A stretch of DNA of 64,000 nt from Cytophagales bacterium. Its GTDB lineage: Bacteria; Bacteroidota; Bacteroidia; Cytophagales; Cyclobacteriaceae. A model generated the notes under the pieces. It had not been told where the DNA came from and ran no database searches. It saw only the letters and a program-made list of their open reading frames with translations. The position numbers were made by a program, and so were the translations under genes. Shown piece by piece: positions 57,601 through 64,000 of this stretch (the stretch's first letter is position 1; every line of letters begins with the position of its first letter). The stretch spans positions 232,821 to 296,820 of the forward strand of contig JAFLBQ010000003.1 in assembly GCA_017303805.1 (NCBI GenBank), in the 5' to 3' direction.

Positions 57601-57760
57601 GCACGGCTCATAAGCCACTTAAAAGTTTCAACCCGGAGTAATTACGCTCCGGGTTTTATTTTCTCCGTACCAGTACGTATAGCAAATACCCGCAACTGGG
57701 TATAGGGCAGCAAGCACTACTACTGCACTTTTGACTACCAAACTCAAACCTGCGATACGT

Positions 57761-59398
57761 ATGAAAATTAAACTTCTGTTAGGGGCGCTTTTAGTATGTG
57801 CATCTGTTGCCAATGCCCAACAATTAGAACTGGAAAAAACTTTTAAAATCTCTCGGGCTTCGAAGCGCGGATTTTTGGCCGGGTTAGATTACGACCCTGC
57901 GGCTAAAACGTACTCCTTAACATATTTTACCGATCAGAAAAAGAACACCTTCAAATACGAGCAATATGTATTCGACAACGACTTTAATCTGGTAAGCGAA
58001 AATGAGTTTACCGAGGAAGCCGAAAAGATGAAGAAGAAATTCAAGTGGTTCAAATTTAAAGGTGAAGAATATACCGTGGTGGGTAATACGGTGGAAAATA
58101 ACATGATGGGAACGTTGGTGTTGCGCAAAAAGAAAATCACTTACAAGTATCAGTTCCTGATGGGTGGTTACAACCGCAAAGTGGAAATTCTGGATAAGGT
58201 TAAACCAAAAACCGAAGATGGCAATCGTTTTACCGGAATGAACCATGCAGAAGATGAAATGACCGGAGACTTGTTCATTCTCGCATCCGTAAAGGCTAAA
58301 ATCGGAACCAAGGGCAACGAAGATGTAGGCGCAATTAAACTACTTAAATTCGATACCGATCTGAACCTTGTTAAGAGTGCCGATTTTGATTTCCCCTACC
58401 TGCAAACTTTAGTAACTGTCCATACCTTATCGCGCGAAAACCCCGAAGATCCGGAAAGCCCGGGAATTGCCGGCATGGCATTTATTTTTGCACCTTCCAA
58501 CGCCATGGGCAAAAAATTTTCCGATCCGGATAACAACAACTTCACGTACATCCGAGTGGATGACCAATGCAACATTGTAGAGCGCTTTAGCTTTACCAGC
58601 CCCGCCAGTTACTGGCGTGTGGATGACATGCTGGTAAACAACAACGATTTTTATTTCTATGGCCCGGCTATGGCTGGCCGCGATAAATATTTTAACGAAG
58701 GGGCCGGTTCGCGCATTGGCGGTGGCGAAGTAAAATACAAAGCCGTGCAACTGATGAAAGTTTCGGGCGGTAAACTGGCTTACTTAACCGAAACTAATCT
58801 GGACGAATTTAAGGCAAAGCAGAAATTTCCACCCAGCCAACGCAAAACACCCGACTATACCGGCCGGGAGTTTGGAATTCGTTCTTACAACTTTACATCC
58901 TCAGGCGATCTGGTAATACTGGGCCAGAACTACGACAAAAGTAAAGATGGCATCATTACAAAGTTCGAAGATGTACTTGGCTTCCATTTCGATTCGAAAG
59001 GCGTGCTGAAAGCACAATATGGGATAGACACCAAAGAGAAAGGAATAACGGTGGACTACAACTACCTTTCCGGAATTGGGTACACCACCGTAACGAAGAT
59101 TACTACTGTGTACGCCTGCCCCCAAGCAATTATTGAAGGCAGTGACAAAAATTTGTATTGGGTACTACAGGAAATTAAAGGCCAGGCAAATGGAAAGCTC
59201 TTAACCTACCCGCGCATTGGCAAAGTAAACCAGAACAATGCCACGCTATCCGACCTGACCACTTTTGGTAAAGGCGAAGGCTTTTATCTTGACCCTAAGT
59301 ATCCATTTCTCGAAACCGATAAGAGCGAAACCGTGGTGTTTTTTGGTGCCGACAAGGCCGGCAAAGAATTATGGTTTGCCCGTGTAAAGTTAAAATAG
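57761..59398 (+). CDS. Hypothetical secreted beta-rich protein
   Basis: Signal peptide MKIKLLLGALLVCASVANA from ATG 57761; long clean ORF; no motif recognised. Confidence 0.7.
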   Translation: MKIKLLLGALLVCASVANAQQLELEKTFKISRASKRGFLAGLDYDPAAKTYSLTYFTDQKKNTFKYEQYVFDNDFNLVSENEFTEEAEKMKKKFKWFKFKGEEYTVVGNTVENNMMGTLVLRKKKITYKYQFLMGGYNRKVEILDKVKPKTEDGNRFTGMNHAEDEMTGDLFILASVKAKIGTKGNEDVGAIKLLKFDTDLNLVKSADFDFPYLQTLVTVHTLSRENPEDPESPGIAGMAFIFAPSNAMGKKFSDPDNNNFTYIRVDDQCNIVERFSFTSPASYWRVDDMLVNNNDFYFYGPAMAGRDKYFNEGAGSRIGGGEVKYKAVQLMKVSGGKLAYLTETNLDEFKAKQKFPPSQRKTPDYTGREFGIRSYNFTSSGDLVILGQNYDKSKDGIITKFEDVLGFHFDSKGVLKAQYGIDTKEKGITVDYNYLSGIGYTTVTKITTVYACPQAIIEGSDKNLYWVLQEIKGQANGKLLTYPRIGKVNQNNATLSDLTTFGKGEGFYLDPKYPFLETDKSETVVFFGADKAGKELWFARVKLK

Positions 59399-59418
59399 GC
59401 CAGTTGGTTGTTAACCTT

Positions 59419-59456
59419 AGAGAGTTGCTTCCGGTGAGGCAACTCTCTTTGTTTTG
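59419..59456 (+). terminator. Intrinsic terminator
   Basis: AGAGAGTTGC-TTCCGGTGAG-GCAACTCTCT followed by TTGTTTTG. Confidence 0.8.
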
Positions 59457-59532: not shown

Positions 59533-59564
59533 TTTGGAAACTCTACCAAACCACTATACGTTTG
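59533..59564 (+). promoter_or_regulatory. Canonical Bacteroidota sigma-A promoter of the Met operon
   Basis: TTTG (59533-36), 20-nt spacer, TACGTTTG (59557-64). Confidence 0.75.
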
Positions 59565-59596
59565 TGTCATCATAGTCGGTGAGGCATTTGCTGAAA

Positions 59597-59723
59597 CCGA
59601 TTTATAAAGAAGCGTGGAGAGTACAGGCTCTGAGAAACGCTAGCAACCTTCAACCGAATAAAATCGGAAAGAAACGGTGCTAAATCCTGCTCCCGGCAAG
59701 GTGCCGAGAGAACTATAAACCGG
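59597..59723 (+). ncRNA. SAM-I riboswitch
   Basis: P1 CCGATTTATA/TATAAACCGG; P2 AGCGT/ACGCT; P2b AGAG/CTCT with loop CAGG able to pseudoknot with CCTG; GCAACC; GGTGCTAAATCC; P4 CTCCCGGC/GCCGAGAG. Lies upstream of Met genes. Confidence 0.88.
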
Positions 59724-59732
59724 TAAAGTAAA

Positions 59733-59879
59733 ATGAGAACACAACTTTCCAACCTCAAAAGCCGCTCAGGTTTTCAAAGCCTGAAAAATTCACTTAAGGA
59801 TTTATTTCAACACATTCATTTCGCATTAGCGCAAATATGCAATCCTATTCCACAGGGTTGTATGTGTTGTTGCTGTTGA
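59733..59879 (+). CDS. Poly-Cys upstream ORF / putative leader peptide (48 aa)
   Basis: Manual translation: MRTQLSNLKSRSGFQSLKNSLKDLFQHIHFALAQICNPIPQGCMCCCC*. A at -3 and -6 of the ATG. Below the ORF-track size cutoff. Confidence 0.7.
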   Translation: MRTQLSNLKSRSGFQSLKNSLKDLFQHIHFALAQICNPIPQGCMCCCC

Positions 59880-60004
59880 GCTTGTTGCCCTTACAAGCGT
59901 AGCGCTTTAGGCAGCACACTAACCTATGATTATGCCAGGTGACAGGCACAGTTACGGTTACGTTTTCAACTATTTTTTTCAACAACCTTTAAAAACGCAT
60001 AGTT

Positions 60005-60439
60005 ATGTCTAATCTGAAATTTTATATCAACTCTAAAAGCGAAACCGCGGCCCGCACTGAAATAGAAACGCGCGGCTTTAAATTAATAGTAGATGAACCT
60101 GCCGAACTGGGTGGTACCAACAAGGCCCCCAACCCGGTAGAATACATTTTAGCCGGGTATGCCGGTTGCATTAACGTAGTGGCGCACCTTACCGCCAAAG
60201 AATTAAACATCGATGTGAAAGATTTACAAATCGACATTGAAGGTGATTTAAACCCGGCCCGGTTGTTTGGTACCTCTTACACCGAACGTGCCGGCTACAA
60301 AAACATCAATGTAATTCTTAAAACAAAGAACAAAATTGATGAAGTACTGAAGACCAAATGGCTGCAGGAAATTGAAAACCGGTGCCCGGTAAATGACAAC
60401 CTGCGCAATCCGACCCCAATCCAATTTTCGCTAAACTAA
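60005..60439 (+). CDS. OsmC/Ohr-family protein
   Basis: DEP.ELGG...APNPVE..LA..AGC and RCPV two-Cys pattern. Confidence 0.88.
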   Translation: MSNLKFYINSKSETAARTEIETRGFKLIVDEPAELGGTNKAPNPVEYILAGYAGCINVVAHLTAKELNIDVKDLQIDIEGDLNPARLFGTSYTERAGYKNINVILKTKNKIDEVLKTKWLQEIENRCPVNDNLRNPTPIQFSLN

Positions 60440-60494: not shown

Positions 60495-61829
<1,335 letters not shown>

Positions 61830-61830
61830 G

Positions 61831-61928
61831 CCTCACCCTAAATCCTCTCCTCAGGAGAGGGACTTTGAGTTTAAGCTAAATTGATTGTTCCGGCACCCCT
61901 CTCTTGCGGAGAGGGGCCGGGGTTGAGG
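61831..61928. repeat. REP-like palindromic element, copy 2 (BIME-like pair)
   Basis: CCTCACCCTAAATCCTCTCC-TCA-GGAGAGGGACTTT ... CCCCTCTC-TTGCG-GAGAGGGGCCGGGGTTGAGG between metY and metX. Confidence 0.75.
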
Positions 61929-61929
61929 A

Positions 61930-62973
61930 ATGAAAACAGATCAGATATATCACTTTGCCAGTGAGTTCCAGTTGGAAACCGGGGGGAAACTCCCGGCTTT
62001 CCAGCTTAAGTACACTACGCTTGGCCAATTAAATAAAGACCGGAGCAACGTAATCTGGATTTGCCATGCGCTTACCGGCAGTTCTGACTTTACAGATTGG
62101 TGGAGAGAGTTATTTACAGAAGGCACTCCGTTCGACCCGCGCGATTATTTTATTGTTTGCGCCAACACCTTAGGCGGTTGCTATGGTTCAACCGGGCCGC
62201 TCTCTATCAATCCGCAAACGGGCCAACCGTTTTATCATTCCTTTCCGGAGATTACCAACCGCGATGTAGTGCGGAGTTTTGATTTGCTGCGCCAACATTT
62301 GGGCATCCACAAAGTGCATACGCTGGTGGGTGGTTCACTGGGTGGGCAGCAAGTATTGGAGTGGGCCATTCTTCAACCTCACGTGTTTGAACGAATTATT
62401 CCCATTGCTACCAATGCCTTTCACTCGCCCTGGGGCATTGCGTTTAACGAAGCACAGCGAATGGCCATTGCAGCCGATGCCACCTGGAAACAAGAAGACC
62501 CGCGTGCCGGGGTTGAAGGCATGAAGGCGGCCCGCGCTATCGGTATGATTTCGTTTCGTACGTACGACACCTTTCAGCAAACGCAAAGCGAGAAGACAAC
62601 CAATAAAGCCGATGACTTTCGGGCCGCCTCCTACCAACGCTACCAGGGTCAGAAGTTAGCCAACCGTTTTAATGCGTTCACTTACTGGGTGCTTACCAAA
62701 ATGATGGACAGCCATCATGTTGGGCGGAACCAACCCAGCGTTGAGCATGCCCTGGCTGCAATTAAGGCCCGCACATGGGTAATTGGCATTGATACTGATT
62801 TGTTGTTTCCTGTTCGCGAGCAGGAATACCTGGCCCACCATATACCCGGGGCAAAGTTGGATACCATTACTTCGTTACACGGGCACGATGGCTTTTTGGT
62901 AGAGTTTGCTCAGTTTAAACAGAGTGTAAGAAAATTTTTAAGAACAGAAGTAAAAAAAGAAACCTTAGTATAA
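61930..62973 (+). CDS. metX: Homoserine O-acetyltransferase
   Basis: CHALTG, N.LG.CYGSTGP, GGSLGG nucleophile, D.LFP and HGHDGFL motifs. Confidence 0.93.
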   Translation: MKTDQIYHFASEFQLETGGKLPAFQLKYTTLGQLNKDRSNVIWICHALTGSSDFTDWWRELFTEGTPFDPRDYFIVCANTLGGCYGSTGPLSINPQTGQPFYHSFPEITNRDVVRSFDLLRQHLGIHKVHTLVGGSLGGQQVLEWAILQPHVFERIIPIATNAFHSPWGIAFNEAQRMAIAADATWKQEDPRAGVEGMKAARAIGMISFRTYDTFQQTQSEKTTNKADDFRAASYQRYQGQKLANRFNAFTYWVLTKMMDSHHVGRNQPSVEHALAAIKARTWVIGIDTDLLFPVREQEYLAHHIPGAKLDTITSLHGHDGFLVEFAQFKQSVRKFLRTEVKKETLV

Positions 62974-64000
62974 TGAAGAAGAAATTAAAGTTAGGCTTGT
63001 TTGGATTTGGATGTGTGGGGCAGGGCCTTTACCACGTGCTGAACGAAACCCACGGAGTGAAAGCAGAAATAAAAAAAATCTGTGTAAAGAATCGCAACAA
63101 GCACCGCATTATTGATGCGGCTTATTTTACCTACGAGGCCAACGACATTCTGAACGACCCCGAAATAGATGTGGTGGTGGAGTTGATTGACGATGCCCAT
63201 GTAGCTTTTGAAATTGTAAAGAAATCGATACACAACGGAAAGCACGTAGTTACTGCCAACAAAAAAATGCTTGCCGAACATTTGGAAGAAATCTACGAGC
63301 TGCAGCAAAAGTACGATCGTTCTATTCTTTACGAAGGAGCCGTATGCGGCAGCATTCCCATTCTTCGCAACCTCGAAGAATATTACGATAACGATCTAAT
63401 CACCAGTATTGAAGGAATCTTTAATGGTTCTACCAACTATATTCTAACCAAAGTATTTGATGAGAAGAAAAGTTATGCCGAAGCGTTGAAGGCTGCCCAG
63501 GAACTGGGCTTTGCCGAAACAGATCCTTCGTTAGATGTAAAAGGGTTTGATCCGAAATACAAACTTGCCATTGCCATTGCCCACACGTTTGGGGTATTTG
63601 TAAAGCCAGAGCATATTATCAACGTAGGTATCCAAAATATATCGGCTGTTGATCTGAAGTATGCACGCGAAAATAACCTCACCATTAAACTGGTGGCTCG
63701 CGCGCTCAAAATTAACGGTAACATTATCGGGTTTGTGGCTCCGCAATATATTCCTACAGATCATACGCTGGCTTCCGTTCGCAACGAATACAATGCCGTA
63801 TTGGTGCAAGGCGCTTTCGCGGAAAAGCAAGTGTTTATTGGTAAAGGGGCGGGTAGCTATCCTACCGGCTCGGCCGTGCTATCGGATATTTCGGCCTTAA
63901 CTTTCGACTATCGGTACGAGTATAAAAAATATACCCAGGGCGATGGGCTTCCTTTCTCCAACGATGCCCTGGTAGATGTGGTGGTTAGCTTCCCGGAAGG
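62973..64000 (+). CDS. hom: Homoserine dehydrogenase (3' end outside window)
   Basis: Manual translation from the TAATG overlap: MKKKLKLGLFGFGCVGQG, VVTANK, YEGAVCGSIP, GIFNGSTNYILT, GFAETDP..DV.G.D..K and GKGAG..PTGSAV.SDI. Confidence 0.93.
   Translation, partial: MKKKLKLGLFGFGCVGQGLYHVLNETHGVKAEIKKICVKNRNKHRIIDAAYFTYEANDILNDPEIDVVVELIDDAHVAFEIVKKSIHNGKHVVTANKKMLAEHLEEIYELQQKYDRSILYEGAVCGSIPILRNLEEYYDNDLITSIEGIFNGSTNYILTKVFDEKKSYAEALKAAQELGFAETDPSLDVKGFDPKYKLAIAIAHTFGVFVKPEHIINVGIQNISAVDLKYARENNLTIKLVARALKINGNIIGFVAPQYIPTDHTLASVRNEYNAVLVQGAFAEKQVFIGKGAGSYPTGSAVLSDISALTFDYRYEYKKYTQGDGLPFSNDALVDVVVSFPE

Follow-up and report, generated by a model that had tools for sequence, protein, structure and literature searches.

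The stretch of DNA analysed here, 64,000 nucleotides (nt) of a Cytophagales bacterium (contig JAFLBQ010000003.1; hereafter the window), carries the methionine operon osmC-metY-metX-hom on its forward strand. The operon starts with an OsmC-like gene (60005-60439; PF02566, with the OsmC-related (seleno)protein domain at 77 bits, below its cut-off of 95). It continues with metY, encoding an O-acetylhomoserine/O-acetylserine sulfhydrylase (60507-61829; TIGR01326, 666.9 bits against a cut-off of 495), metX, encoding a homoserine O-acetyltransferase (61930-62973; NF001209, 332.9 bits against a cut-off of 331), and the homoserine dehydrogenase gene hom, which runs off the window (62973-64000; PF00742 and PF03447). 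The leader of this operon contains an S-adenosylmethionine (SAM) riboswitch aptamer of the SAM-I type (59599-59721) and, 11 nt past it, a short open reading frame (sORF) that ends in cysteine (Cys) and methionine (Met) codons. That this sORF is real, translated and coupled to the riboswitch we regard as almost certain.

The sORF lies on the forward strand (59733-59879), with its ATG at 59733 and its TGA at 59877-59879, and comprises 48 codons. Its translation is MRTQLSNLKSRSGFQSLKNSLKDLFQHIHFALAQICNPIPQGCMCCCC, which ends in GCMCCCC, and its final codons are GGT TGT ATG TGT TGT TGC TGT TGA. Two parts may be distinguished: a C-rich, G-poor body (59736-59855) and a putative regulatory tail, C-M-C-C-C-C (59859-59876; TGT ATG TGT TGT TGC TGT). 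The start codon has an A-rich context, GGTAAAGTAAAATG. An unannotated 48-codon frame with such an end and such a start had been proposed in a first-pass annotation of the window, and its coordinates, translation and final codons proved exact. The SAM-I riboswitch that it had placed ahead of sulfur-amino-acid genes was also recovered, at 66.7 bits for RF00162 and with MetY, MetX and hom downstream; on identity, a riboswitch and a Cys/Met leader peptide before these genes, the annotation was largely right. The peptide matches no family in Pfam or NCBIfam, a search of 5.8 billion predicted proteins gave no homologue, and by these searches a known protein family was ruled out. Public protein calls contain none of these Cys-tailed sORFs.

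In the Rfam search the aptamer scored well above the gathering score of 44.4 (E 3e-14), the match spanning model positions 1-108 of 108. By this covariance model it belongs to the SAM-I family, and binding of SAM is predicted. Its P1 helix is lengthened by ACC/GGU, giving an element of 59596-59724. Among the leaders P1 reaches 2-7 bp past the Rfam model, on average 3.7 bp in register against at most 0.67 with the 3' side shifted, and the extension shows compensatory changes (ACC/GGU, AUC/GAU, UUAAUC/GGUUAA). An A-rich spacer, AAAGUAAA (59725-59732), delimited by sequence and by spacing in relatives, joins the base of P1 to the start codon. The end of the Rfam model lies 3-12 nt before the ATG in 20 of 20 named loci, and the end of the extended P1 lies 0-9 nt before the AUG (median 6) among the leaders, 8 nt in the window. 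The initiation region of the sORF is within reach of the ligand-dependent P1 helix, as in upstream ORFs (uORFs) controlled by riboswitches. No terminator of the hairpin and U-tract type, such as forms the expression platform of a canonical S-box, follows the aptamer of the window. Because such a terminator is missing and the extended P1 abuts the start codon, the riboswitch appears to have no platform of its own and the sORF appears to be its expression platform. Furthermore, since a closed P1 would lie within the mRNA stretch that the 30S ribosomal subunit must occupy, SAM binding probably blocks sORF initiation, as judged from this geometry.

Upstream of the aptamer is a conserved candidate promoter (59533-59564), with TTTG at 59533-59536, a spacer of about 20 nt and TACGTTTG at 59557-59564, which by comparison with the consensus of Bacteroides promoters we take to be of the Bacteroidota type. 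In 21 of 21 leaders the sharply conserved pair TTTGGAAAC ... TACGTTTG keeps a constant distance to the aptamer: TAnnTTTG is found 40-43 nt upstream of it in all 21 and TTTGG about 20 nt further up, against 2.5% of random 90-nt windows. We infer a transcription start near 59570. The position of this promoter, about 40 nt above the aptamer, implies a leader RNA of about 435 nt and an sORF that is not leaderless, its AUG standing about 160 nt into the transcript. At 59567-59582 the sequence UCAUC-AUAGUC-GGUGA may form a 5'-terminal hairpin; relatives have UCAUC...GAUGA, a possible sign of covariation. The stem-loop may serve to stabilise the mRNA at its 5' end, or part of it may precede the transcription start.

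Conservation and coding signature of the leader ORF

A DNA search of 61 related genomes gave 30 orthologous leaders from the same genus. All 30 have an ATG ORF of 34-59 codons that starts just past the aptamer and ends in a Cys-rich tail, for example CMCCCC, CCCCCC, CCPCCCCCC or MCCIWCCC. The body of the peptide cannot be aligned among relatives, while the neighbouring MetY is 87-100% identical. Named genomes were then scanned with MetY, which placed the lineage in the Cytophagales; the matches comprise metagenome-assembled genomes labelled Cyclobacteriaceae, Flammeovirgaceae, Ohtaekwangia and Chryseolinea, the cultured Chryseosolibacter indicus, C. histidini and Pseudochryseolinea flava, and Fulvivirgaceae bacterium JP3-4. 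Under a strict tail filter the sORF is present in 75 of 80 named-relative loci, and 4 such ORFs occur in 563 kb of control sequence. Twenty loci were re-checked with Rfam, including four of the five that the strict filter had missed and those of C. histidini, C. indicus, P. flava and JP3-4; all 20 have the aptamer above threshold (60-77 bits) together with a Cys-tailed sORF. In some relatives (loci L041-L045, L075 and L076) the tail ends in UGG (Trp), as CMCCCW or MCCCCW, and others end in CCCPVRCW; UGG is one base from a Cys codon.

The module extends beyond the family. Some 80 SAM-I loci from beyond it were examined in all. In the order (91 genomes, 22 families), 29 such loci came from six other families, and 11 of the 29 have an ATG 7-10 nt past the aptamer that opens an ORF of 30-49 codons with a poly-Cys end, and metY is the next gene in 10 of these 11. 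The remaining SAM-I loci of other families mostly have ordinary hairpin-plus-U terminators. In modest samples from further afield the sORF was found in 0 of 27 SAM-I loci from other classes of the phylum and in 0 of 20 from other orders of the class. In these samples the riboswitch-sORF combination is, as far as sequence comparison can tell, an order-level trait. The comparison of orthologous leaders that the first-pass annotation had proposed, looking for conserved terminal Cys codons behind a variable N-terminus, came out in its favour, the Cys (and Met) tail being kept behind a variable body.

The coding signature was measured on 12 independent ortholog pairs, with the start codon and the last seven codons excluded. 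The ratio of nonsynonymous to synonymous substitution rates (dN/dS) comes to 0.39 in the reading frame of the sORF and to 1.08 and 1.51 when the frame is shifted, and substitutions at codon positions 1, 2 and 3 number 72, 59 and 104 (chi-square p=0.001). This frame specificity implies that the sORF is translated and excludes an element acting as RNA only; on the same comparative grounds the body of the peptide is constrained, weakly but genuinely.

In our view there is next to no probability that the ORF arose by chance, or that the stretch is a U/G-rich RNA element without coding function, for instance the tail of a terminator-like hairpin (59835-59865). It is true that Cys-rich hexamers arise readily in six-frame translation: in the window at least 4 Cys per 6 residues occur at about 8 places, against a mean of 3.5 in Markov shuffles, and we rejected the Cys run as significant by itself. 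A terminator scan also flags the hairpin 59835-59865 followed by GTTGTTGCTG. However, RNAalifold gave 0 consensus pairs for this hairpin, whose registers differ between sub-clades, and it was dropped as a terminator or pause hairpin; more than 100 divergent leaders agree in frame, in the position of the ATG and in having the stop directly behind the Cys run; and the coding signature is specific to the frame. The sORF is considered real because of its conservation and genomic specificity rather than because of the Cys run.

Tail statistics were taken over 102 distinct sORFs, which are related sequences, so that the percentages are descriptive. Cys makes up 52.9% of the last 10 residues, against 0.70% in the genome (about 75-fold enrichment), and is the C-terminal residue in 86 of the 102. 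Met makes up 8.3% of the last 10 residues, against 2.05% in the genome and 2.5% in the sORF body (4-fold), and 74% of the sORFs have a Met within them. The Cys codons of the tail are UGU, the wobble-read codon, in 70% of cases, compared with 42% in the genes of the genome. The sORFs have a median length of 45 residues and a conserved MK(N/T) N-terminus. Clusters of cognate codons beside a stop are the signature of sensors of tRNA charging, and the co-enrichment of Met fits a methionine operon. A short translated leader ORF with a cluster of pathway-related codons at its end is also a feature of the trpL type of leader.

The same data bear on whether the peptide itself is the product of interest, that is, a Cys-rich micropeptide acting as a thiol, metal or sulfur buffer or as a redox partner, made at low SAM and merely co-transcribed with the operon. 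The dN/dS of 0.39 does indicate some purifying selection on the body, the length and the MK(N/T) N-terminus are kept, Cys is very last in 86 of 102, and OsmC-like and thioredoxin-like proteins are among the products of neighbouring genes. Against this stand the unalignable body beside a MetY that is 87-100% identical, only the tail being kept, and the lack of any Pfam or NCBIfam family or homologue. The preference for wobble-read UGU and the co-conserved Met codon suit tRNA sensing better than chemistry; the genome has three paralogues in the same position relative to the aptamer, ahead of unrelated operons; and OsmC is absent from most leaders. We therefore hold a functional micropeptide to be improbable. 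In particular, osmC stands next to the leader in 17 of 91 orthologous leaders, the remainder having metY or metX directly, and two paralogous modules precede unrelated operons; on these grounds we reject the suggestion of the first-pass annotation that the peptide is a substrate of the OsmC protein. The osmC gene looks like a recent, sub-clade-specific insertion into an older leader-metY unit.

The genome of the window has five SAM-I riboswitches. Three are followed 7-11 nt later by a Cys-tailed sORF, with the tails TTCCC, MRCCC and CMCCCC directly before the stop. The other two have no sORF: one (contig coordinates G000:C6:10189-10291) is a canonical copy with a hairpin and T-run before a Cys/Met pyridoxal phosphate (PLP)-dependent enzyme, and the other precedes a metH-like gene. 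A genome-wide scan for ATG sORFs that have 15-80 codons, 3 or more Cys among their last 6 residues and a CCC returned 20 candidates, 16 inside long ORFs and 4 intergenic, three of the latter being those associated with riboswitches. The fourth (G000:C6:187813-187875) has no riboswitch nearby and was discarded because it only overlies, out of frame, the beginning of an acyltransferase gene. Every genuine intergenic Cys-tailed sORF of the genome (3/3) follows a SAM-I aptamer.

One paralogous module precedes an operon for YceI, an M19 dipeptidase, a thioredoxin-like protein, a cytochrome c peroxidase and a TonB receptor; the second precedes an operon for an ATP-grasp protein, a thioredoxin-like protein and a hydrolase. 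In two genomes of the same genus the module lies directly before metX. The operons behind the paralogous modules are of a sulfur-scavenging type, which we count as physiological support for the mechanism proposed below, together with the assignment of MetY to the O-acetylhomoserine/O-acetylserine sulfhydrylase family. Outside the window, at locus L145 (G000:C6:7001-23000), one strand carries three SAM-I riboswitches in a space of 12 kb. Two of them carry sORFs, MKTNTLQ...CPTTCCC before the YceI operon and MNKKRITT...IMRCCC before the ATP-grasp operon, and the third has a classic terminator before the Cys/Met PLP enzyme and two sulfur-transport proteins; the locus looks like a sulfur-scavenging island under SAM control.

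Two further observations concern the surroundings of the operon. Upstream, positions 57731-59448 hold the gene of a 555-residue protein with an N-terminal signal-like sequence and no Pfam family, and the met leader is shielded from it by a strong terminator hairpin of 13 bp (59419-59448). In the metY-metX spacer, a sub-threshold match to Rfam whalefall-1 lies on the minus strand at 61829-61863 (20.4 bits against a gathering score of 37, E 0.13); the GC-rich hairpin there, GUCCCUCUCCU-GAGGAGAGG, may be a simple intercistronic stem-loop.

RNA elements between the leader ORF and the first gene

About two thirds of the family leaders share three elements after the sORF: a small hairpin, a GCAACA-type stretch and a 41-nt hairpin. 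In the window the small hairpin, AAGCG-UAG-CGCUU, is at 59895-59907 (77% of cells paired), and all 5 of its pairs change on both sides. The GCAACA-type stretch, here GGCAGCACAC, is at 59910-59919; its CA is invariant and GCAACA nearly so, and its complementarity to UGY codons makes it a putative pairing partner of the tail. The distal hairpin (59920-59960) has an invariant GUGAC in its loop (59939-59943) and no U-tract after it. It is supported by covariation, with 84% and 96% of cells paired, compensatory changes in 10 of 14 pairs and 0 of 500 shuffles as good. About 27 of the 91 family leaders lack the GUGAC motif yet have the sORF, and many of these have instead a GCGAUA..UAUCGU hairpin right past the stop and a UGAC...GUCA hairpin. 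A covariance model of the distal hairpin (R1), run against this genome and 90 others of the order, matches this leader (67.4 bits) and nothing else, and the hairpin as a general motif was ruled out. From this distribution the GUGAC hairpin is best read as a clade-specific accessory outside the shared mechanism, which cannot therefore depend on it. The initiation region of the first gene (59961-60004) is A/U-rich and G-poor; G makes up 3.6% and A 44% of the 40 nt that precede the gene in the 91 leaders, and the region is therefore intrinsically open.

These elements invite a structural readout of the same riboswitch-gated Cys/Met sensor, in which a stalled ribosome would remodel the Cys-codon, post-stop UUGUUG, GCAACA and distal hairpins and so, in the manner of classical or mycobacterial attenuation, act on an atypical terminator, on the stability of the RNA or on the translation of the first gene. 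Several observations agree with it. The UGY codons have their complement 30-40 nt downstream in the nearly invariant GCAACA stretch, past the stop codon there is often a second UUGUUG-like copy, in another family too, and the small and GUGAC hairpins covary. In mycobacteria, moreover, stalled ribosomes block a duplex that sequesters the ribosome-binding site (RBS) (bioRxiv 10.1101/834739). The quantitative tests, however, turned out otherwise. The energy of the duplex between the Cys codons and GCAACA is no better than that of dinucleotide shuffles (RNAduplex, mean z -0.74), and no in-register conserved helix covers the Cys codons. Constrained minimum-free-energy folds of the three leaders of the genome, with the first Cys, the last Cys or the stop masked as if by a ribosome, gave no consistent switch. 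No U-tract follows any conserved hairpin. Sequestration of the initiation region of the first gene, of the kind described by Canestrari et al., was rejected, the CAACA/TCAAC complement being present in only 13-24% of leaders. The distal hairpin, finally, is missing from the 90 other genomes of the order, and its GUGAC motif from about 27 of the 91 family leaders, which keep the sORF. On balance a structural readout seems unlikely to us, though it deserves more weight than the micropeptide.

A long-range pairing of the 5' GUCAUC with the GGUGAC loop was also rejected. The cognate energy of -16.86 kcal/mol is hardly distinguishable from the mismatched one of -16.65 (permutation p=0.38), and GUCAUC is missing from 5 leaders that keep the GGUGAC loop, which counts against the pairing.

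Between the sORF and the first gene there is no hairpin with a U-tract, and the leaders inspected have no conserved terminator/antiterminator pair; the mutually exclusive hairpins of trpL-type leaders have no counterpart over the Cys codons. The gap from the sORF stop to the first gene is 87-193 nt, unlike the adjoining frames of termination-reinitiation from a uORF. The first-pass annotation had pictured a riboswitch and a Cys/Met ribosome-stalling attenuator in series. Both sensors are indeed present, but they are probably nested rather than serial, and the classical attenuator structure, with its terminator/antiterminator pair, is absent, so that an attenuator in the trp sense is unsupported.

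Proposed mechanism

The body of the sORF resembles in composition a Rho utilization (rut) site. C amounts to 26.6% and G to 14.4% (C/G 1.93), and C exceeds G in 98% of the 91 leaders; in controls C/G is 0.92-0.95 for the sense strand of genes and 1.08 for regions upstream of genes (p=7e-50). In other Cytophagales families C/G of the body is 1.2-3.0. Rho is encoded in the genome, its RNA-binding domain scoring 121 bits. A C-rich, G-poor leader ORF in a genome with Rho recalls leaders of the mgtA type, although composition is only consistent with a rut site.

From these data we propose a composite mechanism, to which we assign a probability of roughly 60%, in which a SAM-gated sORF with a Cys/Met tail would oppose Rho-type termination through its occupancy by ribosomes. 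With SAM bound, a closed P1 inside the 30S site would block initiation of the sORF. At low SAM, ribosomes would load, translate the C-rich, G-poor and weakly constrained body and reach the C-M-C-C-C-C-stop. If Cys-tRNA or Met-tRNA were scarce, they would dwell or queue at the terminal codons. Such occupancy would cover the leader RNA and prevent premature termination, most likely Rho-dependent, while an sORF left untranslated or quickly vacated would expose the rut-like stretch and transcription would stop. Expression would thus rise at low SAM and rise further when Cys or Met is limiting. Occlusion of initiation by SAM, stalling at the Cys and Met codons, an operon switched on by stalling and Rho as effector are all deduced steps. 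The AND logic of the first-pass annotation, with the genes on only when SAM and Cys are both low, is a deduction of the same kind. The Rho step taken singly, argued from composition and from the elimination of alternatives, is tentative and falls somewhat short of even odds.

Readout by Rho and ribosome coverage would explain both the length of the ORF (median 45 codons) and the lack of a conserved downstream structure across the order. Other facts weigh against the proposed mechanism. With a dN/dS of 0.39, below 1, the body is not neutral and may itself serve some purpose. The mechanism leaves the conserved distal GUGAC hairpin unexplained. The constrained folds, which revealed no ribosome-dependent switch, are uninformative rather than supportive. 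A C-rich, G-poor sequence could equally reflect selection against structure. Finally, the direction of the response, in which stalling would turn the operon on, is taken by analogy from other biosynthetic leaders.

The sORF could also be no more than a translational platform, which sets polarity by being translated or not, while the tail does not sense tRNA charging and might serve slow termination, peptide release or rapid turnover of the peptide. The abutment of P1 on the AUG and the rut-like body would suit such a platform, and riboswitch-controlled uORFs without regulatory codons are known (PMC11260477). What it leaves without reason is a 75-fold enrichment of Cys confined to the last 10 codons and kept across seven families. 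The sORF also stands ahead of sulfur-amino-acid genes with Met co-enriched 4-fold, which sensing of cognate codons predicts and which is hard to obtain otherwise. We consider a platform without a sensor very unlikely.

Returning to the SAM-gated sORF with a sensing tail, a more speculative generalisation, less probable again than the Rho step, is that SAM-I riboswitches of the Cytophagales have swapped their conventional platform for a rut-like ORF working as a 'ribosome-occupancy integrator'. SAM would set the entry of ribosomes and Cys/Met-tRNA their dwell, and Rho would convert both into one graded transcriptional output.

Related systems and significance

Several known systems share parts of this arrangement. 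In mycobacteria, leaderless polycysteine sORFs render operons responsive to cysteine by means of a duplex in which the downstream RBS is sequestered (Canestrari et al., bioRxiv 10.1101/834739). Earlier, the cys and cbs operons of actinobacteria had been predicted to have leader peptides with Cys codons, with Rho suggested since no terminator was found (Seliverstov et al. 2005, PMC1262725). Like the mycobacterial sORFs, those of the Cytophagales are unannotated and short, have their Cys run near the stop and form the first cistron before sulfur operons; as in both actinobacterial cases, several copies per genome suggest a regulon, and a classical terminator is missing. Unlike the leaderless mycobacterial sORFs, the one described here begins about 160 nt into its transcript, behind a SAM-I aptamer that probably gates initiation. 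It also has a co-conserved Met codon, lacks a conserved counterpart of the RBS-sequestering duplex of Ms5788A and belongs to the Bacteroidota, where translation does not rely on Shine-Dalgarno pairing.

In Mycobacterium tuberculosis, B12 riboswitches of ppe2 and metE control the translation of uORFs, and PPE2 is expressed mainly by termination-reinitiation from the adjacent uORF (Kipkorir et al. 2024, PMC11260477). The likeness is that a riboswitch acts, putatively in our case, on a short uORF whose translation sets downstream expression. However, the ligand and the aptamer class are different, the gap here is 87-193 nt, and the uORFs of ppe2 and metE have no run of cognate codons and no second signal.

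The mgtA leader of Salmonella is reported to join a Mg2+-sensing RNA to the proline-codon-rich mgtL and to act by Rho-dependent termination (Park et al. 2010; Hollands et al. 2012). Both systems pair a ligand-sensing RNA with an sORF rich in codons for an amino acid, both take two inputs, and Rho is the terminator, by deduction in our case. The signals differ (Mg2+ and Pro against SAM and Cys plus Met), as do the lineages, which are unrelated, and mgtL reportedly lies inside the alternative stem-loops of the sensor, whereas the present sORF follows a compact aptamer and would be gated through P1.

With trpL, hisL, leuL and thrL the sORF shares a translated leader ORF with end-product codons near the stop before a biosynthetic operon. 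Unlike them it has no conserved terminator/antiterminator or U-tract, it is much longer (median 45 codons), and its own initiation would be under riboswitch control. With the canonical S-box it shares the RF00162 aptamer family and the Met/Cys regulon; unlike it, no terminator follows the aptamer of the window, and a start codon stands 8 nt from the extended P1 instead. The module thus resembles a fusion of the mycobacterial sORF, B12-uORF and mgtA systems and is a member of none, being neither leaderless nor provided with a sequestering duplex, a reinitiation geometry or a classical terminator/antiterminator pair. A full-text literature search turned up no account from Bacteroidota of a Cys-codon sORF joined to a SAM riboswitch, in agreement with the first-pass annotation, which knew of none.

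The two classic cis-acting sensors of bacterial mRNAs, the riboswitch and the leader peptide, are almost always described separately. Here both are fused in a fixed geometry that is kept across an order and occurs in several copies per genome. Initiation of translation in Bacteroidota does not rely on Shine-Dalgarno pairing, and control by riboswitches is therefore poorly understood there. If SAM gates the entry of ribosomes and Cys-tRNA and Met-tRNA their exit, one leader would compute three sulfur signals without a protein regulator. The sensing of Cys-tRNA by sORFs, so far established only in mycobacteria, would by this prediction extend to a distant phylum. The Cys-tailed sORFs are a gap in annotation, being absent from public protein calls, and cultured relatives that carry the module (Chryseosolibacter, Pseudochryseolinea) make the idea directly testable. 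Should the integrator be true, it would be a structure-independent way of merging a metabolite signal with two signals of tRNA charging, in a phylum without control based on Shine-Dalgarno pairing, and the three copies in this genome would constitute a SAM/Cys regulon for methionine synthesis and sulfur scavenging.

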